DNA of 64,000 nucleotides from an uncultured Trueperaceae bacterium (GCA_963799485.1 CAWCXJ010000008.1:128001-192000), one strand, 5' to 3'; shown: positions 8,132 through 42,071, counted from the stretch's first letter. The notes: generated by a model from the letters alone, not told the origin. Program-made: numbers and translations.

Positions 8132-8164
8132 AGAATAACGCGGACGGTCTAACAAGATTCTTAC
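8132..8164 (-). promoter_or_regulatory. GTAAG-N6-GTTAG-N11-TATTCT promoter
   Basis: same geometry as sites at 33239, 33323, 41030. Confidence 0.7.
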
Positions 8165-8241
8165 AAAAGCTAAAACGGGCAGCTCTCTGCGCTGACCAAG
8201 TGGCGACTTAGCGGTCGCCCGGAAGCAGGTACAGTGACCTT

Positions 8242-12491: not shown

Positions 12492-13529
12492 TTAGGGCCG
12501 CCTGATACACGCCTTGAAGTGACCGGGCGAAATCTCCTCTAAGGGCGGGACGACCTCGGCACATTCTTTAATGGCAATCGGGCAGCGCGTCCTGAACACG
12601 CACCCTGACGGCGGGTTGATGGGGCTGGGAATATCGCCCTGCAAGATGGTGCGCTCGCGTTTGACGGTCGGGTCGGGGATCGGCACCGCCGAGAGGAGCG
12701 CTTCGGTATAGGGGTGGATTGGGTTGCGGTAGAGCTCTTTGGCAGGCGCGATTTCCATCACGCGGCCTAAGTACATCACCACCACGCGGTCGGAGATGTA
12801 TTCGACGACGCCCAAGTCGTGCGCGATAAAAAGAAGGGTCAGGCCGAGTTCTTCTTTGAGGTCTTGGAGCAAGTTGACGACCTGCGCCTGAATCGACACG
12901 TCCAAAGCCGAAACGGGTTCGTCGGCGACGATAAACTGCGGGTCAACCGCGAGCGCCCGCGCAATCCCGATACGCTGGCGTTGCCCACCGGAAAACTCGT
13001 GCGGGTAGCGCCGCATATGCTGCGCGGAGAGTCCGGTACGTTCCAAAAGCTGTACGATACGTTCTTCTCGAGCTTTGCCCCGGGCGAGTTTGTGAATATC
13101 TAACGCCTCACCGATAATGTCGCCGACGGTCATCCGGGGGTTTAAGCTGGCAAACGGGTCTTGAAAGATGATCTGCATCTCTTTACGGTACTCGCGCATC
13201 TGCGAACGCGACACCTTGGCGATGTCGGTGCCGTTGAAGATAATTTCACCTTCGGTCGGTTCGATCAGCCGCAAAATCGTGCGTCCGGCGGTCGTTTTAC
13301 CTGAGCCCGACTCACCGACGAGCCCGACGACCTCACCGGGTTTGATGTTGAGCGACACGTCTTCGACCGCTTTGACGTTGGCAACGGTGCGCGAGAAGAC
13401 GCCGCCCTTGATGGGAAAATACTTTTTGAGGTTTTTGATCTCCAAAAGGTATTCGCCCTGGGTCACGTCGCGTTTGTCTGCGCCGGAGGAGCGCTTTTCG
13501 GGTTCGTGTACTACACGTACCTCACTCAC
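12492..13529 (-). CDS. oppF: oligopeptide ABC transporter ATP-binding protein
   Basis: [20 protein letters not shown], oligo_HPY C-terminus. Confidence 0.93.
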
Positions 13530-14536
13530 GCGACCTTCTCCTCTTCGAGCTCGAGCTCGTTCCAGCGGATGCAGCGCACCATATGTCCGCCGCCGGTGTC
13601 TTCAAGGGGCGGGATCGCCTCTTTGCACTTTTCCCGGACGAACGCGCAGCGCGGGTGAAACGAGCAGCCTTGCGGCAGGTAGAGCGGGTTCGGGACGTTG
13701 CCGGGGATGGCTTGGAGCCTGTCCTGGTGTTCAGCGGCCTTGTCCACACGCGGAATCGAGTTCATGAGCCCGAGGGTGTAGGGCATCTGCGGGTTGGCAA
13801 AAATCTCGTTGACGCTGCCCTCTTCGACGGCGCGACCGGCGTACATCACCACCACGCGGTCGGCAATTTCCGCGACGACGCCTAAGTCGTGCGTGATAAA
13901 CAAGATGCTCATGCCGATTTCGCGTTGCAGCTGGCGCATCAGGTCCAGAATCTGCGCCTGGATGGTGACGTCGAGTGCGGTGGTCGGTTCGTCGGCGATC
14001 AAGAGTTTCGGGCCACACGACAGCGCCATCGCAATCATCACGCGCTGGCGCATTCCACCCGACATCTGGTGCGGGTAGTTGTGGACGCGTTTGCCCGGTT
14101 CGGGGATGCCGACCAAATCGAGCATTTCGGTTGCGAGCTTCATCGACTGTTTACGGTTTTTGTGCTGGTGGAGCTGAACCGCTTCGGCAATCTGGTCGCC
14201 GACGGTGTAGACCGGGTTCAAGCTGGTCATCGGCTCCTGAAAGATCATCGAGATGTCGTTGCCGCGAATTTTCCGCATCTCCGACTCGCTTTTTTTGACC
14301 AAATCCTGGCCTTCAAAGAGCATCTCGCCGCCTGCGATACGCCCCGGCGGTTGCGCGATCAGCCGCATGATAGATAAGCTCGTGACCGATTTGCCCGAAC
14401 CCGACTCGCCGACGACCGCTAAGGTTTCGCCCCGGTTGATGTGAAACGTTACGCCGTCGACGGCTTTGACCGTGCCTTCGTCGGTGCCGAAATAGGTTTT
14501 GAGGTCGTTGACCTCGAGGATACGTTTGTCAGCCAT
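13526..14536 (-). CDS. oppD: oligopeptide ABC transporter ATP-binding protein
   Basis: [30 protein letters not shown]. Confidence 0.93.
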
Positions 14537-14622
14537 AAAGTCTCCTGGGGACCGTGAAAGTTCGTGTCTCAACCGCGCTTTCAGCCACTTTGTACCTGCT
14601 CACCCTGTTAGTGTACCGCACG

Positions 14623-15822
14623 CTACTGCCGACTACGCGGGTCGAAAGCGTCGCGCAGTCCGTCGCCTAAGAGGTTCCAGGTCAAAACCGAAATAAAGAT
14701 AAACACACCGGGCAAAAAAACCCACCAGCGTTCGCCGAGTCCCGAAACACCCGCAAAGCCCTGCGCGGTCGCCAGCATGAGCCCCCAACTCGTCGAGGGT
14801 GGTTGAATGCCGAGGCCGAAAAAGCTCAGTACAGACTCGGTGATAATAAACGCAGGGATTACAAGACTCATGTAGACGATAACGTAACTTAGCGTGTGGG
14901 GCAGCATATGGCGAAAGATAATACGGGTATTGTTGGCACCCAAAGACCGCGCGGCGTAGGCAAAATCGCGTTCACGGAGCGACAACACCTGCCCCCGAAT
15001 CGTCCGCGCGACGCCGCCCCAACCGATGACCGAAAGTGCGATAACGACCAGTATAAAAACGGTCGAAGACGGGAGGTTCAGCGGATAAAAGACCGCCGAA
15101 AGGGTAATCAGCAAAAAAAGATCGGGAATAGCCGAGAGTGCCTCGATAAACCGCATAATCACCTCGTCGACCCAACCACCGAAAAACCCGGCAATTCCGC
15201 CCATGACCATCCCGATGATAATAGCGACAAGCGCTGCCATAATCCCGATAGTGAGACTTATACGTGCGCCGAAAAGGATTTTGCCGAACACGTCGCCGCC
15301 CAGGTCGTCCGAACCCCAGAGGTGAATGCGTGCGGGTTCATCGACGCCGAACAGGTGCAGCGTTGCCCAGGGGCGGATATTTAGGGTTTGGCGGAGGGGT
15401 TCGGGGATGAGGTTGACGGGAAACGGGACGTAGCGTTCACGGACACCTTCACGCCTCACCAGGAGCTTGAGTGGATAACGCACCGAGGTGTCCTCCGTCC
15501 AGGTCGTTTCGAACGTCTCCATATCGAGTGTTTGCGTCATCGCGTAGATAAACGGCCCGACAAACCGCCCTTCCTCCCAGAAGCGAACGCGGTTGGGCGG
15601 CTGAAAGGTGATATTGGGGTTGATATATCCTTCCGAGTAGGGTGCAAAAAAGTCTGCAAACGCTGCTAGAAAATACAAGATACCCAAGATAAGGAGCGCA
15701 ATACGCGCCAGCGGATGTTTGCGAAACTGCGCCCAGGCAATCGAGGTGAGGCTGGTACCACGTCCTTTTTTCGCTGCCGGAGCCTCCGGCGCGCCGGTCG
15801 GCACAAACGGTGCGTCGGCCAT
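14623..15822 (-). CDS. oppC: oligopeptide ABC transporter permease
   Basis: GSDDLGGD, AARSLGA loop, LGDGLRDAFDPR. Confidence 0.92.
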   Translation of the reverse strand: MADAPFVPTGAPEAPAAKKGRGTSLTSIAWAQFRKHPLARIALLILGILYFLAAFADFFAPYSEGYINPNITFQPPNRVRFWEEGRFVGPFIYAMTQTLDMETFETTWTEDTSVRYPLKLLVRREGVRERYVPFPVNLIPEPLRQTLNIRPWATLHLFGVDEPARIHLWGSDDLGGDVFGKILFGARISLTIGIMAALVAIIIGMVMGGIAGFFGGWVDEVIMRFIEALSAIPDLFLLITLSAVFYPLNLPSSTVFILVVIALSVIGWGGVARTIRGQVLSLRERDFAYAARSLGANNTRIIFRHMLPHTLSYVIVYMSLVIPAFIITESVLSFFGLGIQPPSTSWGLMLATAQGFAGVSGLGERWWVFLPGVFIFISVLTWNLLGDGLRDAFDPRSRQ

Positions 15823-16802
15823 CAGTAACGAATCCGCGGGTCAATGAGAGCGAGAGCGAGGTCGGACAAGAGGTTGCCGAGCATTAAAAGAATCGTCAGG
15901 ATAGTCAGCAGCGCCATGATGACGTAGGTGTCTTGGGCGTAGATCGAGCGGATGAAGAGCGGCGTGATACCGGGCCAGCGGAGTACGTACTCGACGGAAC
16001 CCGCGCCGCCGATCAAGCTGGGCAGCAGCCCACCGATTGTTGCTACGATCACAATCATTGCATTTCTAAGGGCGTGCTTGTAGTTGACTGCACGCTCGGA
16101 AAGCCCTTTGGCGCGCGCCGTGCGAACATAATCCTGACCGAGTACCTCGAGCATCTCCCCGCGCATAAACCGCGATACCGAGGCGAGGCTGGCCAGCATC
16201 ACGACAATCGTTGGTGCAATCAGGTGCCAGGCGATATCCCAAAACTGCCCCCACGCGCTCAGCTGCCCGAAGTTTTGACTGGTCATCCCCCCCACCGGAA
16301 TTAAAAAGCTGTCATACGCCTGAAACCACTGCACTGCGAACGCCACTACGAGGAGCGCCAGAAAAAAGTTGGGAATCGCCAGCCCGATAAGACTAAAAAT
16401 AGTTAAAAACCTGTCGCCGAGCGAATACTTACGAACCGCTGAAAAAACGCCGATAGGTACTGCAATGAGATAGGTCAAAATTGTCGCCGGCAAAAGCAGC
16501 CGCAGGCTGTTGATCATCCGGGGCCAGATGAGGTTCGTAACGTCTCCCTTGGAGGTCATGCTGGTACCGAAGTCAAAACCCGTCACGACGTTTCTAAGCC
16601 AGTAAAAATAGCGGATGAACCACGGCTGACCGAGCCCGAGCGCTTCACGAATCCGCTCTGCTTTATTTGGGTCAACCTGGTCGAAAGCAAATTTGCTGGC
16701 AAAATCTCCCGGTGCAATTTCGATAACGACCCAGGCTAAAAAGGTCGCCAGGATAAAGGTGGGAATAAGATTGATAAAACGTCTCAGGATATAAGCGGTC
16801 AA
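15822..16802 (-). CDS. oppB: oligopeptide ABC transporter permease
   Basis: AYILRR, QDYVRTARAKGL..HALRNA, DPRIRY; TTG start after GGGAG. Confidence 0.92.
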   Translation of the reverse strand: MTAYILRRFINLIPTFILATFLAWVVIEIAPGDFASKFAFDQVDPNKAERIREALGLGQPWFIRYFYWLRNVVTGFDFGTSMTSKGDVTNLIWPRMINSLRLLLPATILTYLIAVPIGVFSAVRKYSLGDRFLTIFSLIGLAIPNFFLALLVVAFAVQWFQAYDSFLIPVGGMTSQNFGQLSAWGQFWDIAWHLIAPTIVVMLASLASVSRFMRGEMLEVLGQDYVRTARAKGLSERAVNYKHALRNAMIVIVATIGGLLPSLIGGAGSVEYVLRWPGITPLFIRSIYAQDTYVIMALLTILTILLMLGNLLSDLALALIDPRIRY

Positions 16803-16859
16803 CGGTCTCTCCCAATATCTGCAAACTTGTACAGCCAAATGTTGCGACTAAATCTGTGA

Positions 16860-16892
16860 CAAGGAGCTTTTGGACAATCCAAAAGCTCCTTG
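16860..16892. other. 15-bp perfect hairpin downstream of the SBP gene (mRNA stabiliser/attenuator)
   Basis: caaggagcttttgga-caa-tccaaaagctccttg. Confidence 0.65.
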
Positions 16893-16909
16893 CAAATGCC
16901 GGGTTGACT

Positions 16910-18700
16910 TTACTGCGGCGCAGCCAGCGTGTCGCGGAAGCCGCCGGGACGGTAGGGGGACTCGATGCTGTTCGCGTCCAGCGCTTCTTCGGGCCAGAGG
17001 TTACTCATGTTGCCGTAAAAGCTGAACGCGGGGCTGATAAGCGGCGTCATCGGCAGATACTGACGCATCAGCTCGGCGCGCTGGTCGTAGATCGCTACGC
17101 GCTCGTCTAGGTCGAGCGTGCGGTCCATCCGGCGGCTGAGGCGGTCCATCGAAATCTCCCAGGGTTGGGCGTCGTCGGGGTTTTTGTTCCACGAATTGAG
17201 GTTTTCGCCTAACCCCAGCACGTTGACCGACGAGGGGTTGTCCACGTCACCACCGGCAAGTCCCCAAATCTGCGCGTCGTAGTCGACTTTGGTGCCTTCG
17301 GCTTCGGTACCGGTAATCGAATCCGACCAGATTTCTGTTGAAACTTCACGTGGGTTCGCGCGGACACCGTACTCTGCGAGGGTCTGCGAGATAACCTGCG
17401 CTTCTTGGGCGCGGCGGTCGTTGCCGGAGTTGAACTGCAAATCGAAAGCGACGCGGCAACCCGTATCCGGGTTCATCAGCACGCCGTCCTGGCCGGTTTC
17501 GGTAAAGCCGATAGAGTTGAGAAGCTCAATACCGCGCTGAGGATTAAACTCGAAGGGCTCCAAGTTCGGTGCGTCGAACGGCGCTGACGAATCGCTGTTG
17601 TAATCGCTGGCGGGAAAACCGAGGCCACCCAGCGCCGCCTGAATCAAAGCTTGCCGGTCGATCATAATCGAGACGGCCTGACGGAACTCGGGCGCACGGA
17701 ACAAGTTACGCTTACACTCGTTTTTCTTCTGAAAGTTATAGGTAATAAAGTCTACCAGCGTGTCGGGGCCGATGTTGGGAAAGAACGTCCCGTTGATCGT
17801 GCCGTTTTGTACCGCCTGCTGCACGGCGCGCACGTCGTCTACAGTTTGCGGCCAGTCGAAGCTGGCCTGACCTGTGGTTACGAGCGCAATCTGTGCGTTA
17901 CGGTCGGCGACGAAATCCACCGTCCAGGTGTCGGGGCCGGGGAGCGGCGAGCCGTCGGCAGCCTGGACATTCTTGCCGTACTCGGGGTTTTTAGAAAGCA
18001 CGATGCGCTCGCCGGGGCGGAACTCGGTGATCATGTAGGGGCCACCCGAAACGAGCTGGTCAACGGGGGTGTCGGTTCCCCACAAGGAGAGGATGCCCTC
18101 AGCCCCACTTTCTTCATAAACCGGCATGAAAACGTGGGCGGGAACAGCGCCGACGGAAGCGACGGCGAACATCAGGTTGACCTGCGGTTCGGGCGAGGTG
18201 ACGCGAAACTGATACTTGCCCATCTTCTCGTAAACGATGGGTTCTTCGTTATCACCGACCACAGTCGACGAGTAACCGTTCGACTGGACATCCGGGTCGC
18301 CGATGATGGTACGCGCGGCGATATAGTCGTCGGCGGTGATCTCGGTGCCGTCCGACCAGTTCCAGCCCTCTTTTAACGTGATGATAAATTCTTGCTCCGG
18401 GCGCACCTCTTCGATAGACGCGGCGTGAACCAAGTTAAACGAACCGTCCTCTTGCCTAAACGAACGGTTGCCGAGCCAGTCGCGGTAGATGAGGTCAGGG
18501 CCGCCGACCATACCGATGACGGCAGCTTCTTGAGCACTCGAGGTGAGCACCGGGTTGAGCGTTACGAAGTCGCCGTAAAGCGCCTCGTTGATGGTGCCGC
18601 CCTGCGGGGCGGTCGGCGCGTAGTTTTCAGGCCACTGAAACGTTTGCGCGTAGGCCAGCGAACCGGCTAGCGCTAGGGTCGCGAAAAGGGCTCTTTTCAT
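16910..18700 (-). CDS. oppA: ABC transporter substrate-binding protein, family 5
   Basis: signal peptide, WSDGTEITADD, SGGPY, FRQAVS. Confidence 0.88.
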   Translation of the reverse strand: MKRALFATLALAGSLAYAQTFQWPENYAPTAPQGGTINEALYGDFVTLNPVLTSSAQEAAVIGMVGGPDLIYRDWLGNRSFRQEDGSFNLVHAASIEEVRPEQEFIITLKEGWNWSDGTEITADDYIAARTIIGDPDVQSNGYSSTVVGDNEEPIVYEKMGKYQFRVTSPEPQVNLMFAVASVGAVPAHVFMPVYEESGAEGILSLWGTDTPVDQLVSGGPYMITEFRPGERIVLSKNPEYGKNVQAADGSPLPGPDTWTVDFVADRNAQIALVTTGQASFDWPQTVDDVRAVQQAVQNGTINGTFFPNIGPDTLVDFITYNFQKKNECKRNLFRAPEFRQAVSIMIDRQALIQAALGGLGFPASDYNSDSSAPFDAPNLEPFEFNPQRGIELLNSIGFTETGQDGVLMNPDTGCRVAFDLQFNSGNDRRAQEAQVISQTLAEYGVRANPREVSTEIWSDSITGTEAEGTKVDYDAQIWGLAGGDVDNPSSVNVLGLGENLNSWNKNPDDAQPWEISMDRLSRRMDRTLDLDERVAIYDQRAELMRQYLPMTPLISPAFSFYGNMSNLWPEEALDANSIESPYRPGGFRDTLAAPQ

Positions 18701-28691: not shown

Positions 28692-29567
28692 GTGACGCTC
28701 CGTTCAATGACCCGCAGGCGAAGCTGGCGTTTCGGCGTGTATCGGCTTGGACTTTTACTCGTCGGATTGCTTTTGGGAGGTTGCCGTATCGCCGAACCCG
28801 CGTCCGAGCGGAGCTTTGGGTTGGTCATCCCGGTTTACAACGAAGCAGGGCTCGAGGCGGCTTTAACAACCCTAAAACCACATCTGCGCCCCGCCGACCG
28901 TTTTATGCTCGTCTCGGGCAACACCACGGGCCAGGTCGACGTTTCCTGGCTTAACCGGGCGGCGCTCGAGCTGCGCGCCGTCTATCCGGCAACGCCTATC
29001 TACGCGGCGACGAGCGGCCTCGACAACGTAGCGGTAGCGGCGCGCGAAGCTGCCACGCTCATCGAAGCCATCGTCTACATCTACGAACCAAACTTTCCCA
29101 ACCAGCCGGAGTTTAGCTGGGATTTTGAAACGACTTTGACGCACTTTGGCGAGGCCGGGGCGCTCATTCAAAAAAACGGCTTCCGGGCGATTGGCAAACC
29201 GACGGGCAGACCGCTGCTACAGGTTGATTTGCAGTCTTACGCCTGGGATTACGGCAGGCTCGCCGAGACCGTCGACGAGCTGTTTATCCAAACGCAAACC
29301 TATTGTAAGGAGAGCCCACGAGTCTTTGCGTCGGCCCTCGACGCACTTAACGAACAGTACAGGGGCCGCGCCGGGCAGCGTCCGTGGATTCCGCAAGTTA
29401 CCGTCGACCCGGCTGCGCCCAACGGCACGACGGTGGTGCAGGCCCGGGCGTGCCTGGAGGAGGCGAAACAGCGCGGGCGTTCGGGGGCGGTACTCTGGTG
29501 GTCGCCCTCTTTCGTCGAACGGGCGGTCGCGTTTATCGCGGCGCTGAACGCCGACGCCGAGCTTTAG
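28692..29567 (+). CDS. hypothetical lipoprotein, possible TIM-barrel glycoside hydrolase
   Basis: lipobox LLGGC; YIYEP, WDYGRLAETVDELFIQ, GAVLWW. Confidence 0.7.
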   Translation: MTLRSMTRRRSWRFGVYRLGLLLVGLLLGGCRIAEPASERSFGLVIPVYNEAGLEAALTTLKPHLRPADRFMLVSGNTTGQVDVSWLNRAALELRAVYPATPIYAATSGLDNVAVAAREAATLIEAIVYIYEPNFPNQPEFSWDFETTLTHFGEAGALIQKNGFRAIGKPTGRPLLQVDLQSYAWDYGRLAETVDELFIQTQTYCKESPRVFASALDALNEQYRGRAGQRPWIPQVTVDPAAPNGTTVVQARACLEEAKQRGRSGAVLWWSPSFVERAVAFIAALNADAEL

Positions 29568-31365
29568 GCGCGCCAAACGGCAGCGTAAAGAGCATCTCGA
29601 GGCTGTAGTAACTCCGCAACAACCGAAAGAGAACGTAAAACGGCAGATAGGGCAATAGACCGAACTGACGGTACGCGGCAATGACAATCACACTGACCAG
29701 AAACGGCAAACCTACAACAACCGCGACGAGCGCCGCGCCGTGCCGTAAAAAGAGCGCGTCGGGGGTAAAGAAGAGCGTGACGGTGCCGAAGAGCAGAAGC
29801 GGCACCGTAACCGAACGCCGGGCGACCTGAAGCAGGGCCCACGGCAAACTGAAGGTGCCGCGAATCCCTTGCCTTAGCCGCATCGCCGAGCGGTTGCGCG
29901 CCGCCACGTGAAAGGTACTCCGAAACCACCTGAGCCGCTGCTCACGCAGGCCCGCCAGCGTGCGCGGTACCTCCGAATAGACGTGCAGTCCGGGGTCGTT
30001 GATAAGCCGGTAGCCGAGCCGCCCGATCCGCAGCACGATGTCGGTATCTTCGCCGTTGATCTCTTCGGCAAACCCGCCGAGCGTAACCAGGCAGCTGCGG
30101 CGGTAGGCCGAAAAAACCCCGGACAGGCTCAGCACCCCGTCAACAGCGCTCATACCCAGGCGGACAAACCCCTGATTGAGATAAACTTCGGTCGCGCGCA
30201 TTTTGGCGAGCAGCGGGCGCGACTCGAGCGGTAGCGGCAACCCGCTCACCGCGCCCACGCCGTCGTCGGCAAAGTGCGGGATCGTTTTGGCGAGCAGGTT
30301 GGGCGAGACCTGGGTGTCGGCGTCTACCCGGACGACGATATCTTCTTTGATATGACGGAGGCCCATATTCAGCGCTTTCGACTTGCCGGGTTGGGGGCAC
30401 GCCAACACCACCCCGTCGAGCGCCGCGCAGCGCCTGAGCTCAACCTCGGCGAGCGCGCGGGTCAGGTCTTGCGAACCGTTGTCGACTAGATAGAGTTTAC
30501 AGACGCGCCCGTAACGCTGCGCCGCCAGGTCAAGGCTCCGGATACAGTCGACGATATTTTCCGCTTCGTTAAGAGCAGGTACCAAAAACGCGACCGTAAA
30601 ACGAATATCGCCGGTTTTCGCACGCAGTGCCAGCACCTCGACCCCAACCAGAACGGCGGTAAAAATCGGGAAGAAAAGCAGAATTCCGGGGCCGAGCCCG
30701 CCGAGCAGGGCGGCACTCTTGAGAAACGCCAGGGGCACCCCTAGAAGCCCGTTGGCGGCAAACGCAGTGAGTCCGGCAACCACCACAGCAAAGGCGAAGC
30801 GCGCAGGGTAACGCCGCGAACGTCGCCTTTCACGCCCGACCAGCTCGTCAGCCGGAAGTGTCCCCCACCGCAGCAGCAGCCACGAAAACGACCCGAGTAC
30901 GGCAAACCCCAACACGAGGTTGGTCAGAGTGGGCGTAAACGGCGCGCCCAGCAAAGCGTGCAGATTTGCAAAAATGAGGTCGAGCACAAGCGTAAACAGC
31001 GTAAACATCAGGGTCAAACTCGTCAGCAACTTGAGTCGCCACCCCCAGGTTCCGGCCGCAAACAGGCTGAAAGTTAGAAAGAACGCCAGAAAAAAGGGGC
31101 GCAGCCGGAGCGAAAAGGCTGCTTCCGGGATCGTTCCGGTTACGTTCAGGCGGCTCAGCAAGCTCGTGTAGAAGGGTTCGACAACCGGCGACGCCGCGGC
31201 AAAGACAACAAACACCGAGGTCACCACCACGAGAAACGCAGGCAGCAACCAAGGTGAGCGGGATACCGCGAAGTGCGGCGGCGCGCTGTCTATACTATCT
31301 ATAGGTTGCAGCTCAAAATCTTCAAACGCGGTCGGTGCCTGCGTTGGTTTTGGTTCTACGTTCAT
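29533..31365 (-). CDS. processive GT2 glycosyltransferase (PgaC/IcaA-like) with extra N-terminal TM domain
   Basis: VPALNE, VDNGS, GKSKALN, VDAD, GEDTD, QRLRW. Confidence 0.88.
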   Translation of the reverse strand: MNVEPKPTQAPTAFEDFELQPIDSIDSAPPHFAVSRSPWLLPAFLVVVTSVFVVFAAASPVVEPFYTSLLSRLNVTGTIPEAAFSLRLRPFFLAFFLTFSLFAAGTWGWRLKLLTSLTLMFTLFTLVLDLIFANLHALLGAPFTPTLTNLVLGFAVLGSFSWLLLRWGTLPADELVGRERRRSRRYPARFAFAVVVAGLTAFAANGLLGVPLAFLKSAALLGGLGPGILLFFPIFTAVLVGVEVLALRAKTGDIRFTVAFLVPALNEAENIVDCIRSLDLAAQRYGRVCKLYLVDNGSQDLTRALAEVELRRCAALDGVVLACPQPGKSKALNMGLRHIKEDIVVRVDADTQVSPNLLAKTIPHFADDGVGAVSGLPLPLESRPLLAKMRATEVYLNQGFVRLGMSAVDGVLSLSGVFSAYRRSCLVTLGGFAEEINGEDTDIVLRIGRLGYRLINDPGLHVYSEVPRTLAGLREQRLRWFRSTFHVAARNRSAMRLRQGIRGTFSLPWALLQVARRSVTVPLLLFGTVTLFFTPDALFLRHGAALVAVVVGLPFLVSVIVIAAYRQFGLLPYLPFYVLFRLLRSYYSLEMLFTLPFGAPKARRRRSAPR

Positions 31366-31505: not shown

Positions 31506-31582
31506 GCGCCCGTAGCTCAGTAGGATAGAGCAGGGGACTCCTAAGCCCAAGGTCATCCGTTCGATTCGGATCGGGCGCACCA
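31506..31582 (+). tRNA. tRNA-Arg(CCT)
   Basis: GCGCCCGTAGCTCAGTAGGATAGAGC..CT-CCT-AA..GTTCGATTC..CGGGCGCACCA. Confidence 0.96.
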
Positions 31583-31835: not shown

Positions 31836-33182
31836 CTACTGAACAACATTTTCGAGAAACGTTTCGATATCGAGCCCACCCTTACCGATACCATCTTTGT
31901 ATGCTTTGTTCCGACCGTTATGGTAAAGATCGTCCGTTTGGTTCATGAGCTCGTCGGCAAGCTTTTTGCGGTCCACTTTGAGCGGCTCTCCCAGCGCGAG
32001 CGCCAGCGCACCCGAGGCCATCGGTGCCGCCTGTGAAGTGCCCGTCCAGGCAGCTAAACTCAGCTCTGGCGCTGGACCGAACACGCGCTCACCCGGCGCA
32101 GCCAGTTCGACTTCTTTACCGTAGGTGGCAAAACCGGACTTGACGCCGGTCAGGTCAATACTCGTAACGCTCGTTCGTAAACGTCCAGGTCCACCGTTTG
32201 CTCTGGAGGCAGGGAAAGTAACCTTTTTGTCACCCGTGTTGCCGCTCGAGGCTACGACGAATACACCTTGTTTATTAGCCCATTTGATGGCTTCCTCGAC
32301 CGCTTTAATCTTCGCGTCGCTGCCGAGCGAGAGGTTGATCACGTCGGCGCCCTTGTCGGTAGCCCACTGAATAGCAGCTGTAAGGTCGTCTACGTCTCCT
32401 TCACCGTCAGGGTCAAGCACCCGAATAGGCAAGATCGTAGCGCGCGGCGCGACCTGGCGGATGATGCCCGCTACGTTAGTGCCGTGTCCATAACCGTCCG
32501 CGTTTAAGCTCCCCTCTTCTTGGGGAAGGTTGTCGTTGTCTACAAAGTCTTTCCATTCCGAAGCCGGTGCAAGGGCCTCTGCCAGTGCTGGGTGAGAAAG
32601 GTCGATGCCGGTGTCGATCACCGCCACCTTGACGTTGTAGCCCAAGTTCTTGGCTAAAGCCTGGCCTTGCTCGAGGTGAACCTGTTTCCAGATCGCCGTA
32701 TTTTCGGGCATCCAGAGGTACTGACCGTCCGACCAGAGTTCAGCCCCGCCCCCCGCCCAAGTACGTGACCTGCCGCCGGCCCAGGTACGCGACCTGCCAC
32801 CGGCCCAAGTGCGCGAACGCCCGTTCATCCAGGCGACTTCCCCACCCGCCAAGAAGGCGTCCCGGCTCTCCTCGACGGTAAGGTCTGCCCACACGTCATC
32901 ACCTGCGGCGTCCGCTTGAACGCTTAAAGTGCTCTCGAGTCCTACAACGGCGTATACCCCCGGCTGCCAAACGACGACCTCACCGCCATAACGCTGTGCG
33001 ATGTTCGCGCGTGTGTCGCCCGGTTCTAGCATTACAGTCAGCACGTAGTCGGGCCGCGACGTACTTGTGCGCGGGCCGACAGGTGCCGAAATCTGACAGC
33101 CGGTCATAAACAGTAAGAGTGTAGCCGCAAGAAGATAATAGTTCCTCCGACCGTAACGAAGACGTAAAAGATGAAGATCCAC
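31836..33182 (-). CDS. S8 subtilase lipoprotein with (RSRTWAGG)3 in the pro-region
   Basis: lipobox MTGC; triad VIDTG, GHGT, GTSQAAP; AAGGAG RBS. Confidence 0.92.
   Translation of the reverse strand: MDLHLLRLRYGRRNYYLLAATLLLFMTGCQISAPVGPRTSTSRPDYVLTVMLEPGDTRANIAQRYGGEVVVWQPGVYAVVGLESTLSVQADAAGDDVWADLTVEESRDAFLAGGEVAWMNGRSRTWAGGRSRTWAGGRSRTWAGGGAELWSDGQYLWMPENTAIWKQVHLEQGQALAKNLGYNVKVAVIDTGIDLSHPALAEALAPASEWKDFVDNDNLPQEEGSLNADGYGHGTNVAGIIRQVAPRATILPIRVLDPDGEGDVDDLTAAIQWATDKGADVINLSLGSDAKIKAVEEAIKWANKQGVFVVASSGNTGDKKVTFPASRANGGPGRLRTSVTSIDLTGVKSGFATYGKEVELAAPGERVFGPAPELSLAAWTGTSQAAPMASGALALALGEPLKVDRKKLADELMNQTDDLYHNGRNKAYKDGIGKGGLDIETFLENVVQ
32748..32819 (-). repeat. 3 x 24-bp coding repeat (RSRTWAGG)
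   Basis: identical peptides, synonymously diverged codons. Confidence 0.9.
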
Positions 33183-33238
33183 TCACTACTCCTTTGGTGG
33201 TTGCCAACGGGTGATATTCTGCTCCGCTGCCCAAAAAG

Positions 33239-33271
33239 AGTCTAGAACGCAGAATCTGACAAAATTCTTAC
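33239..33271 (-). promoter_or_regulatory. GTAAG-N6-GTCAG-N11-TAGACT promoter of subtilase
   Basis: 15/16 inverted copy of 33323-33338. Confidence 0.75.
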
Positions 33272-33322
33272 GCTTCAGCACTACTTCTGCGACCGTGCTA
33301 TGAGAACCGGTTTTACCGTTCT

Positions 33323-33355
33323 GTAAGAGTTTTGTCAGCGTGTCTCAGATAGTGT
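33323..33355 (+). promoter_or_regulatory. GTAAG-N6-GTCAG-N11-TAGTGT promoter of TPR/HD-GYP/GGDEF gene
   Basis: same geometry as three other sites. Confidence 0.75.
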
Positions 33356-33357
33356 GC

Positions 33358-33386
33358 TGGTGCGGCTCACGTCTTGAGCCGCACCA
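33358..33386 (+). other. 12-bp perfect hairpin at the start of the leader
   Basis: tggtgcggctca-cgtct-tgagccgcacca. Confidence 0.6.
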
Positions 33387-33476
33387 TTCCAAGTACCCAG
33401 GGGATTTCAATGCGGAGGTACAACATTTTTAGGCGCAAGCGCAGGTTGTTTCAACACGCCACTACGGGTCGCAATC

Positions 33477-35939
33477 ATGTTGGATAGTTTGTCAGATCTG
33501 GTGGCAGCGGAGACAGCCAGTGTAGCTATCTCGGATCTAACACTGAAACATCTGTTCGAGGCTGCTTTAGCGGCAGGTCGTACTTACCGTAAACTGGGTG
33601 ACTTCGAAGGAGCAGCTGAACAGTTTTCTGTCGCCCTTGCGTTGGCTAAACAGTTAAAGGATGCTGGAGCCGAGGCCGATACACTAAATCTACAAGCCGG
33701 TCTGTGGAGTACAACCGGAGACACACCACGGGCATTAGCAGCTTTGGAACGTGCGCTCGAACTGGTACAAGATTCCAGATTCGGGGACCGTCAAGCCAAT
33801 ATCTTGAACAATATGGGCACGTTACATACCGTACTAGGCAACTATCCACAAGCTCTAGAATATCTTAAAAGCGCACACGACCTCTTACGAACCGTCGCCC
33901 CACGGTCCCGGAGTTCGGCGAGCAATCTGACTAATCTGGGCAGCCTCTACCAGGAATTGGGTGACTCTTCCGAAGCAAAAAATTTTTTTACCCAGGCTGT
34001 CGAGGTTGCCCAAACTGCGGGTGAACCTTTGATGGCTGCAGCTGCCCTCAACAACCTCGCTTACACCCATGCTGATGCCGGGGAGTGGCTGTTAGCGAAA
34101 GGCTACTTTCAAAAGGCGCTGACGATCAGCCAAGATGTGGGGGCTAAAGAGTACGAAATTGATAATCTCGACGGCTTAGGACGGGTCTACGCCGCTTTGA
34201 AAGATGTCGACCACGCCAGAAGAATCCATGAGGCTGTTTTAGGTAAAGCTCGAGAGATTGGCTACCTAGAAGGTGAGGGTGACGCACTACTAAACTTAGG
34301 ACGAAACTATTTAGCTCAATGTCAACCCGTACAGGCGCTTGAGTTCTTGCGTCAGGGTCTCAAGATTGCCGAGCAGCTCGAACGCCCGGTTTCGGTGTAC
34401 GAAGCGCATGAGCTGCTCGCTCAGGCATATGAGGAAACTGGCGATTTTGCCAGGGCGCTTCACCATCAGCGGGCTTATCAAGAGACGGAAAAGGCGGTTT
34501 ACAACGAGGAGAACGAGCGCCAAGCCCGTAGACTGACCTTGCAGTTTGACCTCGAGCGGGCGCGCCGTGAAGCCGAAGATTACCGCCTCCGTAACGAAAT
34601 CACCCAACAAGCTCGGGAAGATGCCGAAGCGACGGTTCGTGAGCGCACCCGCGAACTTGAAGAGGCGCAGCTCGAGATCGTCACGCGTTTAGCGGTTGCC
34701 GCTGAGTACCGTGACGACAACACAGGCGAGCATACGAGGCGCGTCGGACGTAACGCTGCTGCGATTGCCCACGCCTTGGGTTGGCCCGAAGACAAGGTGC
34801 AGCTCTTGTTTACGGCTGCCAGGCTTCACGATGTCGGCAAAATCGCGATAAGCGACCTTATCCTGCACAAACCGGGGAAGCTGGAGCCCGAAGAAATTAC
34901 CCTGATGAAGACCCACGCCGTGATCGGCGCACGCATCTTGTCCGGGGGTCACTCGCCGCTTTTACAGATGGCTGAAGAAATCGCCCTTGCCCATCATGAA
35001 CGCTGGGACGGTAAGGGCTACCCTTTAGGACTTTCGGGCGACGCGATTCCGCTATCTGCTCGTATCGTGGCTGTAGCTGACGTCCTCGACGCCCTGACGC
35101 ACGAGCGTCCTTACAAAAGGCCGTGGCCGGTAGCGGAGGCGTTAGCTGAGATAGGTCGGCAGAGCGGACATCACTTCGACCCACGCGTCGTAAAGGCTTG
35201 CTTTATGACCTTCGGCCCGGGTCAGGCGCTTTCTCCTACCGATGATCCGGCAGACTGGCCGGATACAGCTCGGCGTCTAGCCAGAGTTCCGTCGTTCCTG
35301 TCTTTACCGTATCAAGCAGAGTTGGAAGCTGCAAACTCGGTAGAGCGGCTTAAAAAGCTTTTAGCAAAAGCGGTTCAAGAACTCGAGACAAGCCGGCGTG
35401 AAGCGAAAGCGGCGTCTTTGCAGATGCATGAAATGGCGTTCACTGACCCTTTGACCGGACTCTATAATCGCCGGGCTTTTGAAGCAGACCTCGAGACCGA
35501 GGCGGCGCGTGTGCTGCATTACGGCGACCGTCTAAGTGTTCTCAACCTCGACCTAGATATGCTCAAACAGGTCAACGACGCTGAAGGCCACAAGCGCGGC
35601 GACGCGCTGTTATGCAGCTTCGCCAAGGCTGCTAGTGAACATTTGCGGGAGTGGGGCAGGCTTTACCGGGTCGGCGGTGATGAGTTTGCAGCTATCCTTG
35701 TACACACGGGAATACCACATTTTGAGGTAGTTCGTACCCGACTAGATCAGGCGGTAGCTGAGCTTAGAAAAACAGACTTTCCACAAGCGAGTGTCAGCAT
35801 GGGTATCGTCGCATTTCCCGAAGAGGTCTCTACAACTGGAGACCTGATACGTCTCGGTGACCAACGTATGTACAACGACAAGCTAAAAAGGCGCGAGTTA
35901 CGGTCTCGGTTGCACCCTTCTAAGCAAGGTGCTGAGTAG
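33477..35939 (+). CDS. TPR-repeat / HD-GYP phosphodiesterase / GGDEF diguanylate cyclase protein
   Basis: TPR helices (LNNMG, LTNLG, LNNLA, LLNLG); [34 protein letters not shown]. Confidence 0.93.
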
Positions 35940-37846: not shown

Positions 37847-38115
37847 GGGGTTAGTATATGACTCGCTAGTAGATAGCTTTCAATCATGTGTACTCCCAGA
37901 CTGTCGGTTTAACGTGCCTTCAGAAATGTTTACTAATGTGACTAACATGAGTAAAAAGAGAAAAAAGATTAAGAACCAATTAAAAACATTAGTTGCATAA
38001 TAGGATTAAAATCCTTTATACTTACAGAGCATTAAAATTCCCTTCGATTAAGGAGTACAATTCGCAATTCGGCATACACCTTTAGTTATAAGGCTATAGG
38101 CGAGGGGAGTTAAAT

Positions 38116-38232
38116 GTCAAGAAACACGCTGGGTCAAGAAACACGCTGGGTCAAGAAACACGCTGGGTCAAGAAACACGCTGGGTCAAGAAACACGCTGG
38201 GTCAAGAAACACGCTGGGTCAAGAAACACGCT
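38116..38232 (+). repeat. 17-bp perfect tandem repeat GTCAAGAAACACGCTGG x6 plus 15-nt partial
   Basis: contiguous identical units with no spacers, starting within ATG 38114. Confidence 0.97.
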
Positions 38233-38250
38233 AAGACTGTTCTAATCGGA

Positions 38251-39285
38251 ATGCTCTTAGCTATAACGTTGGCTGCTTGCGGAAAAGTAGCGAGTCCAAA
38301 CGAAGCTGTCTCTGCCTCTCCAACAACCAGTGCCGGTTTTATCCCGCAGTACATGCCGGATGCAGAGTTTGCTGTCGCCTCAGAGCTTTCTTCCCAGAGC
38401 TTAGATGCAGCAGAAACACGCATAGACCTCATGGTTGCGCGCAAACACACCTTCAGTAACGGTCAAACCTTTGAATACACTACAATTGGAAATTCGGTTG
38501 TGGACGCCGACGTGATATTCGGTACGACAGAGGAACTCGAAGGAGCTTTCCAGAAGTACGAAGCTTATCTTGCAGAGGGGAACCCCCCGTTGACGCCGCA
38601 AGGTGCCATGTACGACCCCTACTGTGATGTTAGAGTTGTCTTTTGTTTTGTCACGGCTGGGAAAAAATGGGCAACAAACGGGACAACAAATGTTGTCTAC
38701 TTTGACCCACGAACACTCGACCAGTTCACTACAGCGCAGCGGACTCTTATAAGAGATGCCATGCAGCACATAACAGATAAAACGAACGTCGGGTTTCAAG
38801 CTTCTTACGGTGTGGGCAACAGGATTGAGTTTAAGAAAGCAGATGAAGGATGCCACAGCCGCGCAGGGATGGTTGGCGGAGCCCAAACATTAAATCTACA
38901 AGTTCCGAAAGCAAGTAATAATTATGGTTCCTGTTTTGTTAATTCTGACCGCTCGGCAGGTTTCGGCACAATTGCCCACGAACTCGGGCACGCTATGGGA
39001 CTGATGCACGAACACTCACGTACCGACCGTGACAGCAAGATTGATGTTTTGGTCAACAACCTTACGCCAAAAGGCTTAGACATCATGTCTCAGAAGTACG
39101 CACACCAGACGAGAACAGTCTACGACTACGCCTCAATTATGCACTATGAGAGAATTACATCTGACCCATCGTTTGTCAAATGGTCGGGGCTTACCATTTT
39201 TACTACGAAAGGCTACGGTGGGCGTGTCGGTAACAACAGGCTAACTTCTCTTGATGTTCAGGCCATCAATCAACGTTACCCATAA
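38251..39285 (+). CDS. M12A astacin-like zinc metallopeptidase lipoprotein (SD-led start 38114 out of frame)
   Basis: LAAC lipobox, HELGHAMGLMHEHSRTDRD, Met-turn SIMHY. Confidence 0.9.
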   Translation: MLLAITLAACGKVASPNEAVSASPTTSAGFIPQYMPDAEFAVASELSSQSLDAAETRIDLMVARKHTFSNGQTFEYTTIGNSVVDADVIFGTTEELEGAFQKYEAYLAEGNPPLTPQGAMYDPYCDVRVVFCFVTAGKKWATNGTTNVVYFDPRTLDQFTTAQRTLIRDAMQHITDKTNVGFQASYGVGNRIEFKKADEGCHSRAGMVGGAQTLNLQVPKASNNYGSCFVNSDRSAGFGTIAHELGHAMGLMHEHSRTDRDSKIDVLVNNLTPKGLDIMSQKYAHQTRTVYDYASIMHYERITSDPSFVKWSGLTIFTTKGYGGRVGNNRLTSLDVQAINQRYP

Positions 39286-39295
39286 GGGAGCTTTT

Positions 39296-39866
39296 ATGTA
39301 CAGAACTCTGCTTTTACTCATCCTGGTTACGGTAAGCATCTCCGGTTGCAGAAATGCCTCAAGGCGCGACGAAGTAGATTTCCCAAGGACTCACCCTGCA
39401 GCAATTTATGAAAAACGCAGCTTCCAAAGACTATCTTTACGCGCAAGCTGTTATAGCTTCCGGTCTGATTGACGACTTGGGAGAAAAAGACTTTCCTCTT
39501 ACGCTGATAGATGTTTACGAAGAAAAGGCACTCAAGACCTACATTGCGGAACAGGGGTTGACCGAAGAGGAATTTCTAGCCCACCCGAAGCTGCGCGGCT
39601 TCCTGGAGCAGCACCTCATTCCAGGCTATGTTGACCTCATCAAGATTCGTAGTACGCCAAATGGTCGTTTTGTCTACACCTCGGCTGCCGGTTCCGAAAT
39701 CGTCTTTACCACCGGAGAAGACCTTACACAAACGCCTGATAATCTCAACGTTGCCGAAGCTAATGGTGTTCCCTTCAATCCATACTGTTCTGGAGAAGGT
39801 GAAGAGGGTGGACAGCTTTGCTACGCTGTCGCGCCCATTGTTCAGGATTTCGACTGGTCACGATAG
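39296..39866 (+). pseudogene. fasciclin (FAS1)-like lipoprotein split by a frameshift near 39411-39415
   Basis: signal peptide/lipobox ISGC in 39296-39472 frame; SGLIDDL..FLEQHLIPG domain in 39408-39866 frame. Confidence 0.65.
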
Positions 39867-39889
39867 TTTTCTAACGTGAGTTTTAGGGA

Positions 39890-39924
39890 AGGCTCGAGGC
39901 TCCGGCGGTCTCGAGCCTCTTTTT
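39890..39924 (+). terminator. terminator built from two CTCGAG palindromes
   Basis: aggctcgaggc..gtctcgagcct + T-run. Confidence 0.75.
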
Positions 39925-40919
39925 TACCTCGAGACCGACCCCGGGCCCCCCTTGCCCGATTTGTGGTAGACCTCTTGCGTCCCGCCTGAGAGTTCCCCCC
40001 ACGTCACCTGTTCGTCCAGGGTTATCACCTTCACCGGGCATGAGGCCACGCACGCGTTACAACCGTTGCAGCGGTCAGGATGAAGCTTCAAGACGCCGCC
40101 GCCGCCGTCTTTGACGGGCGTTAGTTCACGCTCAAAGGCGTCGGTCGGGCAGACATTGGTGCAAACCGGGCACATGATGCAGCCCTCGTGAACGCGCGGC
40201 AAAATCCACGGCACCTGCGTTTCGGGTTCCGGTTTTGCGGCGCGGATGGTTAACAGCCGACGCTCGAGTTCTATCGGCACGCCTTTGGCCTCGGCTTCGG
40301 TCTCACCGAAAATCTCTAGCGGCGCGAGCAGGTCGGCAGAAAACCGCTGTGTGCCGCGCACCCCGCCGCGTAAGAGCTCGCGGCGGCTGAGCGTGTCGGG
40401 GTTGTCGGTGGTGTCATAACGCGTTTCTTGCAGCACTTCGGTCAAAAGGGTGCGCCCGCGTACTTGGGCGAGGGCTCGAGCCTTCCCCAGCAGCGCGTCG
40501 ACCCGTTCCGGAACCTCGGCGCTACCGATTTTGCAGTCCTTACAGTCGTTTCTGACCATCGTCACCTTGTCTTTACGGCTCGCCAAACGCAGTACGTCGG
40601 TGGCTTGCAGCCGGGTTAGGCACTGCACACTCTGCGCCGAACCGCGCACCTGCGAACACTTGACCGGTGCGCCGGGTTGAAAAACCGGACTGCTCCTAAG
40701 TGCCTGCGACGGGCACGCCTGCACGCAGAGCCCGCAACCGGTACAGTCGATCTCGTCGATTTCGACCTGCCGGGTGATGGTGATAGCCTGATGCGGGCAG
40801 ACGTCTTTACAGACCGAGCAGCCGCCGACCGTGCGGGTGACGACCAAACAGTGTTCCGGCGTATAGGTAGGCTGGATATTGGTCGCCTTGACGATGAAGT
40901 TGAGCAGTTTATCGAACAC
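39924..40919 (-). CDS. 4Fe-4S polyferredoxin-like protein
   Basis: several CxxCxxCxxxCP motifs. Confidence 0.88.
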   Translation of the reverse strand: MFDKLLNFIVKATNIQPTYTPEHCLVVTRTVGGCSVCKDVCPHQAITITRQVEIDEIDCTGCGLCVQACPSQALRSSPVFQPGAPVKCSQVRGSAQSVQCLTRLQATDVLRLASRKDKVTMVRNDCKDCKIGSAEVPERVDALLGKARALAQVRGRTLLTEVLQETRYDTTDNPDTLSRRELLRGGVRGTQRFSADLLAPLEIFGETEAEAKGVPIELERRLLTIRAAKPEPETQVPWILPRVHEGCIMCPVCTNVCPTDAFERELTPVKDGGGGVLKLHPDRCNGCNACVASCPVKVITLDEQVTWGELSGGTQEVYHKSGKGGPGSVSR

Positions 40920-41069: not shown

Positions 41070-42071
41070 GTGCAGTTCGGGTCGTCTCACCGCAGCATCT
41101 GGCGGCAACGTGTGGTCGGCAGTTTAGTCGCGTTGCCGGTCAATGTGACGCTCTACCTCGTCGGCCTACTTCCCTTGCAGGGGCCGCAGCTGCTCATCTT
41201 TCTTGCACTTTTGGTCGTCTACGTCGGGGCGCTTTTTGCCAGAGACGGACGCAGCCCTATCGCCTGGCCGCTCTACCTTTGTGAAGCTGCCGCTTTAGCG
41301 CTGTTTATCCGTGAGACGGGCGGGACGACGAGCCCTTTTCAGGTGCTCGCCTACCCGCTCATGTTCGGTTCGGCGCTGACGCTGCTGCTTGGCGGCTTGC
41401 GCCCTGTTGTCGTACCCTGTCTCGCGCTGCTTACCGGCGCAGCTCTTGCGCTTGGTGGCTGGGGTACGGGTGGGTTTACGCTTTTCGCCCTCGTCAATAC
41501 CGTTGCCCTTACCAGCATGATCGCCGCCTTGCTGACGCTTAACCTCGAGCGCCGCACGGCGCGAACCGATCCGCTCCTGCCGATGGTGCTTAACCGCAGC
41601 GCCGGGCTCGAGCGGCTGACGGACTTGGCCGGCGGCAGAGGCGCGTTCTACCTGTCGTTTATCGATTTGGGCGGATTCAAGGAGATTAACGACACTTACG
41701 GTCATCACGTCGGCGACGAGGTGTTGTGGGCCGTGGCTGAACGTTTGCGTGCTTCGGTACGGGCGCCGGACATCGTGATGCGTTACGGGGGCGACGAGTT
41801 CGTCGTCGCGACAAAAGCTGCCATGCCGGGGGTTCGGCTTGCGAAACTTTTTGCCGTACCCGTAAAAACTTCAGCCGGGCCTATTCCGGTGCAGGTAGAT
41901 ATAGGCGACGTGCCGTATTCGCCCGGCGACGCGCTGCCTGAACTGTTGCGCCGCGCCGACCTGCTGATGTACGAGAGAAAGCGCTCACGACGCGCCGCGC
42001 CTCGTAACGTCCCGTTCGTAGTTTTGCCGAGGCCCGAAAAAGACGAGGTTAAGGCTCGCTCGCGCGTCTAA
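41070..42071 (+). CDS. membrane diguanylate cyclase
   Basis: N-terminal TMs; FKEINDTYGHHVGD, RYGGDEF. Confidence 0.9.
   Translation: MQFGSSHRSIWRQRVVGSLVALPVNVTLYLVGLLPLQGPQLLIFLALLVVYVGALFARDGRSPIAWPLYLCEAAALALFIRETGGTTSPFQVLAYPLMFGSALTLLLGGLRPVVVPCLALLTGAALALGGWGTGGFTLFALVNTVALTSMIAALLTLNLERRTARTDPLLPMVLNRSAGLERLTDLAGGRGAFYLSFIDLGGFKEINDTYGHHVGDEVLWAVAERLRASVRAPDIVMRYGGDEFVVATKAAMPGVRLAKLFAVPVKTSAGPIPVQVDIGDVPYSPGDALPELLRRADLLMYERKRSRRAAPRNVPFVVLPRPEKDEVKARSRV

Follow-up and report, generated by a model that had tools for sequence, protein, structure and literature searches.

Among the closest described systems of intracellular peptide sensing are those of the RRNPP type, in which Phr propeptides are sometimes tandemly duplicated, extracellular proteases (subtilisin, Epr and Vpr) mature them, and the oligopeptide importer Opp brings the products back into the cell (PMC11343458). 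Peptide signaling through cytoplasmic receptors built of tetratricopeptide repeats (TPRs) is described as a trait of the Bacillota and their mobile elements. A different arrangement is that of RcbB from Vibrio vulnificus, whose N-terminal TPR region represses its own GGDEF domain until a product of the same operon relieves the repression (PMC12282931). Here, we analyze a locus from an uncultured Trueperaceae bacterium (GCA_963799485.1, CAWCXJ010000008.1:128001-192000), located at positions 31836-35939 of a 64,000-nt stretch of DNA that we call the window. The locus consists of a gene for an S8 (subtilisin-type) protease and a divergent gene for a protein with TPR, HD-GYP, and GGDEF domains, which we refer to as the sensor. 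The protease carries a tandem array of protein-identical, tryptophan-containing peptides at the junction between its pro-domain and its catalytic domain, and a homologous TPR sensor gene adjoins it in most of the Deinococcota cassettes that we compared; this combination makes the gene pair a candidate peptide-signaling cassette. The features of the two genes are as follows.

31836..33182, minus strand: S8 protease gene, an open reading frame (ORF) of 448 aa
33096..33182, minus strand: lipoprotein signal peptide, residues 1-29, with lipobox LLLFMTGC (from the sequence; Cys29 kept in 32/32 relatives)
32832..33050, minus strand: propeptide with the subtilisin pro-domain fold, residues 45-117 (AlphaFold 2 (AF2) model and structural alignment)
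32712..32831, minus strand: tryptophan-unit array, residues 118-157 (from the sequence; core RSRTWAGG x3 at 32748-32819)
31836..32711, minus strand: catalytic domain, residues 158-448 plus the stop codon (Pfam Peptidase_S8; most blocks with a predicted local distance difference test score (pLDDT) >90)
33477..35939, plus strand: sensor gene, an ORF of 820 aa, divergent from the protease gene
33549..34496, plus strand: eight TPRs, residues ~25-340 (Pfam TPR_12 in five stretches and related models; AF2 helices over residues 20-321, 16 helices)
34446..34658, plus strand: single long helix, residues 324-394, leading from the TPRs to the enzyme domains (AF2; sequence highly conserved in 46 relatives)
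34704..35189, plus strand: HD-GYP domain, residues 410-571 (Pfam HD_5, E 6.5e-36)
35436..35894, plus strand: GGDEF domain, residues 654-806 (Pfam GGDEF, E 1.4e-32)

The protease matches Pfam Peptidase_S8 over residues 182-427 (E 9.6e-41), and its D190, H233, and S383, which form an Asp-His-Ser triad in subtilisin order, are unchanged in 32/32 relatives of the protease alignment. An earlier reading of this DNA, made from the sequence alone (hereafter the sequence-only reading), had described an exported S8 protease with an intact D/H/S triad; the family match, the invariant triad, and the lipobox bear this out. Translation starts at a GTG codon with GGAG ahead of it, and the N-terminal region is conserved among the relatives. 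Pfam LPAM_1 gives weak matches in 4/32 of them, and the lipobox call is based on the sequence together with Cys29. The AF2 model, built from the 32-sequence alignment, has a mean pLDDT of 80.9. Confidence is mostly good across pro-domain residues 45-125, with pLDDT of 85-93 in the blocks of residues 41-80, 71 and 49 in those of 81-100, and 89 and 66 in those of 101-120; residues 90-99 fall below 50, as do array residues 127-154, which are predicted to be disordered.

Residues 44-444 of the model align with unautoprocessed pro-subtilisin E (3WHI, chain residues 8-365) at Z 41.8 and a root-mean-square deviation (rmsd) of 2.3 over 332 aligned residues. Similar values were obtained with pro-Tk-subtilisin (2E1P, Z 40.8) and thermitase (1THM, Z 39.4, rmsd 2.0). 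Mature residue 1 of thermitase aligns to model residue 150 and that of subtilisin BPN' to 156-157, the overall range being 150-158. Since the first residues of mature thermitase and the subtilisins align at the end of the array, the array is an insert of ~40 residues at the pro-domain cleavage junction, and the proposal that it sits where a subtilisin zymogen cuts itself is upheld by the structural alignments. The position of the junction suggests that the pro-domain may be removed here by the enzyme itself. Because the lipid anchor lies on the pro-domain side, a cut within the array would detach the catalytic domain from the membrane. In a sequence comparison, none of the protease relatives (0/32) matches the Pfam I9 propeptide model, and no NCBIfam model exceeds its cut-off for either protein, the GGDEF domain excepted.

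Array residues 118-157 read W-MNG-RSRTW-AGG-RSRTW-AGG-RSRTW-AGG-GAELW-SDG-QYLW-MPENT, with a tryptophan at every eighth residue and a last step of seven. Tandem Repeats Finder reports a 24-bp unit in 2.9 copies at 32748-32816 with 84% matches. The three core units are the same in protein and agree in 8/21 degenerate-codon comparisons, vs. 5.9 expected under independent draw from the usage of the gene; the sequence-only reading had noted this identity in protein across differing codons. The copies in the window and in L001, an orthologous locus among those compared below (86% identity), are orthologous by position, the first Arg being CGY in copy 1 and AGG in copies 2 and 3 of both.

The same organization recurs among relatives. 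A protein search returned 2795 matches at E <= 0.001 among 8000 scored candidates, and the best 120 were viewed over the stretch ahead of the first D[TS]G motif. The junction was visible in 116, the other four being anchored on an earlier motif, and tandem tryptophan units are seen by eye in all 116. In parallel, a scan of species genomes yielded 405 stretches that encode relatives, the best 79 of which (L001-L079; 80 genes including the window, whose own locus is L080) provide the comparative counts given here. These 79 loci come from Truepera and other Trueperaceae, Calidithermus, Meiothermus, Deinococcus, and other Deinococcales, plus eight from Chloroflexota. Arrays in the Deinococcota relatives have 2-7 units. 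The array could be parsed in 69/80 genes, and 66 have at least two protein-identical units, in 54 octamer and 12 heptamer arrays (heptads are seen in L049, L056, L061, and L069). The eight Chloroflexota genes have one xxxAWGG at the junction and no array.

To describe how the units have changed, we used the proportions of synonymous (pS) and nonsynonymous (pN) sites that differ. Within the 69 genes, taken over unit pairs that differ by <=1 residue, pS is 0.554 (926.6/1672.5 sites) and pN is 0.033, the latter biased downward by this pair filter; some of the nonsynonymous change counted reflects Ser or Arg codons that move from one codon family of that residue to the other. Between protein-identical units of the 66 genes, 804/1520 codons are identical (52.9%), vs. 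36.7% expected if they were independent. Between genes, the pattern is the reverse. The 54 octamer arrays have 51 distinct modal units, in which W5 and G8 are invariant, position 6 is A in 42/54, position 7 is G in 41/54, and positions 1-4 are variable. Even close orthologues can differ in every unit of the array: L003 and L009, with pS 0.33 and pN 0.04 between their catalytic domains, have RSSAWAGG x4 and RSNVWAGG x4, respectively, and the intragenic pS of the units is 0.50 in L003 and 0.74 in L009; L040 and L068 (catalytic pS 0.40) have RINM x3 and RISM x3, with all units changed together. The closest protein relatives of the window's protease have RSRI x3 (P0003) and RTRI x3 (P0005). Many Deinococcus arrays are of the form A-B-A, in which both A units are identical across a differing middle unit.

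Directly ahead of the mature domain, the final junction follows a separate conserved pattern, with F or Y at P3 in 118/118 and W at the cut in 94/118; cleavage and maturation by themselves would thus not require identical core units. Taken together, these patterns suggest that the unit peptide itself is selected for uniformity inside a gene and is free to differ between lineages. The suggestion that the units behave like a selected peptide thus gains from their identity within genes at near-saturated synonymous divergence and their difference between genes, and an array with protein-identical units and drifting codons stands as an observation even should the signaling reading fail. As a separate detail, codon sharing in the 66 genes is lower for adjacent identical units (50.6%) than for non-adjacent ones (55.2%), and L003 and L009 show a two-unit periodicity of codon choice; this adjacent-unit pattern could come from block duplication or from selection against adjacent DNA repeats.

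Partner genes were sought by tblastn with the window sensor against the loci, by a Pfam scan of 63 neighboring ORFs, and by de novo clustering of ORFs around the 72 Deinococcota cassettes counted. The three methods agree that a homologous TPR sensor gene adjoins the protease gene in 61/72, so the pairing on which the sequence-only reading depended is conserved in this survey of neighbors. The sensor gene lies downstream on the same strand in 58, mostly with a gap of 7-40 bp (taking the longest ORF) or with the genes overlapping. The exceptions in orientation are the window and L001, where the genes diverge, and L022, where the sensor gene lies upstream. Eleven cassettes have no partner; in five of them (L020, L029, L037, L066, and L071), the contig ends <= about 540 bp past the S8 stop codon. 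In the eight Chloroflexota loci, an adjacent sensor partner was found in 0/8.

The TPR domain is the constant part of the sensor and the output is variable. The output is HD-GYP alone in 24 loci and in 3 more whose GGDEF match is weak or absent; HD-GYP with GGDEF in 22 loci plus the window; GGDEF alone in 4 loci, all with heptad arrays; a HisKA_3 histidine kinase in 4; and a hybrid kinase with a receiver in 2. Of 11 genomes with multiple cassettes, 10 have units that are all different, and the remaining one has two proteases with a shared unit, one of them without a sensor of its own. De novo clustering revealed no third gene family, whether of a modifying enzyme, a transporter, or a regulator, common to more than 5 of the loci around the 72 cassettes. 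Clusters of 41, 26, 25, and 9 loci that might have passed for a third conserved gene are antisense shadow ORFs inside both genes.

At E <= 1e-60, the protease family is present in 156/364 Deinococcota genomes, with counts in the individual taxonomic families of the phylum of 32/127, 88/125, 19/19, 0/23, 16/68, and 0/1 genomes. The window's own genome has a single copy, and its sensor has no close paralogue there, the next best match having E 2.4e-6. Three cassettes are on Deinococcus plasmids (L019, L053, and L054; pDYP1 of D. yunweiensis and plasmids of D. radiomollis and D. altitudinis), a location that fits a mobile two-gene unit. Cultivable carriers include Calidithermus chliarophilus DSM 9957, Meiothermus rufus DSM 22234, and Deinococcus aquatilis DSM 23025.

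The divergent gene encodes multiple TPRs followed by HD-GYP and GGDEF domains, as had been read from the sequence, and both enzyme domains look intact. H451, D452, H506, H507, E508, G512, G514, Y515, and P516, which make up the HD and HHExxDGxGYP motifs, are invariant in 46/46 aligned sensors; NCBIfam TIGR00254 scores 112.8 bits against a 37.4-bit cut-off, and the RVGGDEF letters are intact. By these motifs, the sensor is predicted to be both an HD-GYP phosphodiesterase and a GGDEF diguanylate cyclase. No signal peptide or membrane segment is visible by eye. The AF2 model of residues 1-395 (mean pLDDT 94.7) has a 71-residue helix (324-394) that runs into the HD-GYP domain. Its nearest solved folds in a Foldseek search are the TPR domains of LGN/GPSM2/Pins (4WND, TMt 0.83, rmsd 3.1; 3RO2, TMt 0.81), followed by kinesin light chain (KLC), and the sequence profile gives the same order, with E 1.7e-48 for LGN and 1e-27 to 1e-32 for KLC. 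According to the entry titles, most of the matched LGN/Pins structures contain a bound peptide from a partner protein (Frmpd4, NuMA, Inscuteable, Afadin, and Whirlin). RRNPP receptors are absent from the best 60 PDB profile matches and from the Foldseek matches listed. The LGN/Pins-type match thus points to a TPR fold of the peptide-holding kind and does not support membership in the RRNPP family; homology to the RRNPP receptors that the sequence-only reading took as its model is not demonstrable among these matches, and a distant relationship among TPR proteins is conceivable.

The best reading of these data, which we regard as possible and not far short of probable, is that autoprocessing frees the peptides and that the LGN-like TPR domain is their sensor, through which the turnover of cyclic di-GMP (c-di-GMP) is gated. 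What we infer comprises the cutting of the array at its units, the release of the peptides, their import and binding, and the sign of their effect on c-di-GMP. The protease would be made as a lipid-anchored zymogen comprising the lipobox, the pro-domain, the disordered tryptophan-unit array, and the catalytic domain. Self-cleavage after the tryptophans would separate the catalytic domain from the anchored pro-domain and would, by the same cuts, produce several copies of one short peptide; in the window, these would be three peptides that share ...GRSRTW. The peptide would then re-enter the cell and sit in the inner channel that the eight TPRs of the neighboring cytoplasmic protein form, and its binding may, by way of the long connecting helix, shift the balance between HD-GYP (c-di-GMP breakdown) and GGDEF (c-di-GMP synthesis). 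Switching between synthesis and breakdown, as first envisaged, could apply only to a sensor that, like the one in the window, has both enzyme domains; among the relatives, HD-GYP alone is the commonest output. In its widest form, we put forward tentatively an undescribed, phylum-wide signaling cassette of Deinococcota, in which a zymogen carries its own multi-copy pheromone at the self-cleavage junction, the TPR protein is the receptor that passes the signal to c-di-GMP or, in some lineages, to a phosphorelay, and the rapid, lineage-specific change of units would amount to pherotypes.

The link between peptide and sensor was examined by partial Mantel tests on 41 octamer cassettes. The distance between peptides correlates with that between TPR domains when HD-GYP and protease-domain distances are allowed for (r 0.34, p 0.0005), vs. 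-0.14 for peptide and HD-GYP and 0.08 (p 0.18) for peptide and protease domain. Covariation of the peptide with the TPR domain, which the sequence-only reading had offered as a check, is mixed: it holds overall and in the 22 octamer cassettes from outside the Deinococcaceae (partial r 0.325, p 0.015), but not in that family. Several results weigh against the proposed reading. Within the Deinococcaceae (N = 19), the peptide-TPR correlation is 0.04 (p 0.37), while that of the peptide with the protease domain is 0.29 (p 0.019); all of these Mantel tests are inflated by shared ancestry; and the charge of the peptide does not oppose that of the TPR domain (rho -0.20, p 0.17), with weak per-column correlations. 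In addition to the filter bias on pN given above, some arrays are near-homogeneous in DNA (35/42 codons identical in L012 and L038, 16/18 in L039) and L003 contains a two-unit block duplication, so duplication or conversion contributes to the identity within genes. Six of the partnerless cassettes (L042, L046, L049, L055, L058, and L069) have ample flanking sequence and no adjacent TPR gene. Lastly, the cassette has no importer as a conserved neighbor: permeases of the Opp type adjoin it in only 3/79 loci (L008, L017, and L035). A complex prediction for TPR residues 1-395 with S8 residues 112-160 run without controls, scored 0.15 and 0.17, where the mark was 0.32, and we draw no inference from it.

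The sequence-only reading had also called attention to an opp importer. An OppABCDF-type operon is indeed in the window at 12492-18700, 13 kb from the cassette; it does not count as evidence, however, since the window's genome has 16 matches to family-5 binding proteins, which makes an Opp operon within 64 kb unremarkable. In L008 (1-14511), genes for an S58 peptidase, an M20 peptidase, a family-5 binding protein, and two permeases are followed on the same strand by two tandem cassettes, one of protease a (KSMIWSGG x4) with a TPR-HD-GYP-GGDEF sensor and one of protease b (ASTVWAGG x4) with a TPR-HD-GYP sensor. This peptidase and importer context is suggestive, yet it is rare.

The main rival, which we consider unlikely but serious, takes the array to be a zymogen tether and nothing else, with several equivalent self-cleavage sites that time or grade release, and the sensor to be co-expressed for another reason, e.g., to lower c-di-GMP while a matrix-degrading protease is produced. 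Such a tether accords with an array that is predicted to be disordered and lies at the autoprocessing junction, with the invariant tryptophan at the presumed P1, with Chloroflexota relatives that have one site and no sensor gene, and with the Deinococcaceae, in which unit sequence goes with the protease domain rather than with the TPR domain. It provides no reason, however, for variable positions 1-4 to match in all units despite near-saturated synonymous sites, and it leaves unexplained their concerted change between close orthologues; the junction beside the mature domain, moreover, has a different conserved sequence, and, if co-expression served biofilm dispersal, the occurrence of a constant TPR domain with cyclase or kinase output would be left unaccounted for.

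Two further explanations keep the sensor as a binder of peptides but give it another ligand than the released units. It might read imported digestion products of environmental or matrix proteins, as a nutrient or proteolysis sensor, with the array unrelated to sensing. That an exported protease is so regularly paired with a cytoplasmic TPR sensor of the peptide-binding type would suit this, as would the peptidases and peptide importer that adjoin the L008 cassettes and the many peptide importers in the genome; we nonetheless judge it improbable, as it does not account for unit identity within genes and diversity between them, nor for the differing units and TPR sensors of multi-cassette genomes, and it would make the overall peptide/TPR correlation a coincidence. 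Alternatively, the TPR domain might bind the array of unexported precursor in the cytoplasm, where repeated units would gather sensors, switch dimeric enzymes, and so report an export backlog. Adjacent genes that are separated by 7-40 bp or overlap in most loci, and are often translationally coupled, agree with this idea; a chain with several identical units would lend itself to multivalent binding, the two like units of A-B-A arrays lie 16 residues apart, and an importer would be unnecessary, matching the absence of a conserved one. Against it, the genes of the window and L001 are divergent and uncoupled, the 8-residue spacing appears from the model too tight for two ~320-residue TPR superhelices, lipoprotein precursors are normally exported fast, and we know of no precedent, so we hold it to be very unlikely. 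Any explanation other than these seems to us extremely unlikely. Peptide release by autoprocessing and its sensing by the TPR protein is thus the account that we prefer, and the sequence-only reading as a whole is partly supported.

The two genes are separated by a divergent intergenic region of 294 bp, which contains the following features.

33256-33271 (minus strand) and 33323-33338 (plus strand): 16-nt element GTAAGARTTTTGTCAG, an inverted pair
33358..33386, intergenic: hairpin with a perfect 12-bp stem

The 16-nt element lies 74-89 nt ahead of the start of the protease gene in one copy and 139-154 nt ahead of that of the sensor gene in the other, and the window has 3 matches at <=2 mismatches vs. 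0.05 expected. In L001, an orthologous locus, both arms are conserved, and the hairpin largely so, despite an inserted spacer of ~76 nt. The mirror-image arrangement upstream of both genes that had been noticed earlier is therefore present, in the form of this inverted element, and is kept in L001; the element was not found in the other 77 related loci (L002-L079), and the only further matches are those of the window's own locus, L080. Judged from sequence, the pair and the hairpin fit co-regulation of both genes in Truepera. A scan for sigma-70-like promoters gave 4 sites vs. 1.9 expected, none of which coincides with the element, and a search of the locus for riboswitches and known RNAs with Rfam (E <= 1) returned a tRNA alone. 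The third copy of the element (8149-8164, minus strand, 2 mismatches) is far from the cassette and may mark another gene under the same control.

Other genes of the window surround the cassette. The tRNA gene (31506-31579, plus strand, Rfam 58.7 bits) separates the 3' end of the protease gene from a gene for a 610-aa family-2 glycosyltransferase (29533-31365, minus strand), whose Pfam match begins at residue 258 and whose long N-terminal stretch is hydrophobic by eye. Adjoining the latter is an ORF of 291 aa (28692-29567, plus strand) that belongs to no known family and is lipoprotein-like by eye; together, the two may represent an exopolysaccharide function beside a c-di-GMP gene. On the other side, an astacin-family (M12A) metalloprotease gene (38251-39285, plus strand) lies in the region of lowest G+C (38001-40000, 48.8% vs. 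55-63% elsewhere) and may have been acquired horizontally, and a stand-alone GGDEF protein of 333 aa is encoded at 41070-42071 (plus strand), 5 kb from the sensor gene. As parts of the system, the window's neighbors (the family-2 glycosyltransferase, two hypothetical genes, the astacin gene, and others) were rejected, with 0 matches beside the protease in 79 loci. Elsewhere, L042 (8252-11524) has an orphan array protease (SVTAWSGG x5) followed by a 1091-aa eCIS_core protein in place of the TPR sensor, and L069 from Meiothermus (6093-9448) has two array-type S8 genes in tandem without a TPR gene.

If the proposed reading is right, cytoplasmic peptide sensing of the TPR type would extend beyond the Bacillota, a c-di-GMP enzyme would be gated by a peptide, and one gene would serve as precursor, processing enzyme, and signal source, so that a self-made peptide would directly set c-di-GMP turnover. 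It would also mean a phylum-wide communication that is invisible to gene-pair detectors built on small propeptide genes. In the literature searched, subscription-only papers aside, we found neither peptide-based signaling for Deinococcota nor a description of a module that joins an S8 array protease to a TPR sensor. The two-gene module stands as a finding even should the signaling reading fail, and the cultivable carriers make the case readily testable.

Several known systems resemble parts of this module. The S8A zymogens pro-subtilisin E and pro-Tk-subtilisin, together with thermitase, share with the window's protease the whole-chain fold, the catalytic triad, and the order of pro-domain and cleavage junction; unlike them, the protease has ~40 extra residues of tryptophan units at the junction, a lipid anchor attached through the pro-domain side, and a pro-domain without a Pfam I9 match. 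Tandem identical peptides released by an S8-family protease are known from yeast alpha-factor and Kex2 and from fungal Kex2-processed repeat proteins. The Kex2 systems differ in having separate precursor and protease, membrane receptors, and dibasic cleavage sites.

For the sensor, LGN/GPSM2/Pins and KLC have a similar eight-repeat superhelix of the TPR_12 type, and the LGN entries, by their titles, hold extended partner peptides in the inner channel. KLC binds tryptophan-acidic motifs. Both are eukaryotic scaffolds without enzyme domains, however, and the likeness is one of fold and repeat type that is silent on the ligand here. RcbA/RcbB differ in that a second cytoplasmic TPR protein takes the place of the exported protease as partner, and both an HD-GYP domain and a repeated peptide are lacking.

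A parallel in genetic organization exists with the RRNPP(A) systems of Bacillota (Rap/Phr, NprR, PlcR/PapR, and AimR/AimP), in which, as is proposed here, an exported precursor is encoded beside a cytoplasmic TPR-type receptor and, as is seen here, cassettes occur in multiple copies per genome and on plasmids. The module differs from them in phylum, the string "Deinococ" occurring 0 times in the RRNPP_detector paper, and in output, with HD-GYP, GGDEF, or histidine kinase domains in place of helix-turn-helix or Rap-type domains. It also differs in its precursor, which would be the linker of a 448-residue protease zymogen instead of the product of a small propeptide gene: the sole conserved neighbor of the sensor gene encodes a protease of 430-600 residues, and gaps of 7-40 bp fit no small gene between the two.

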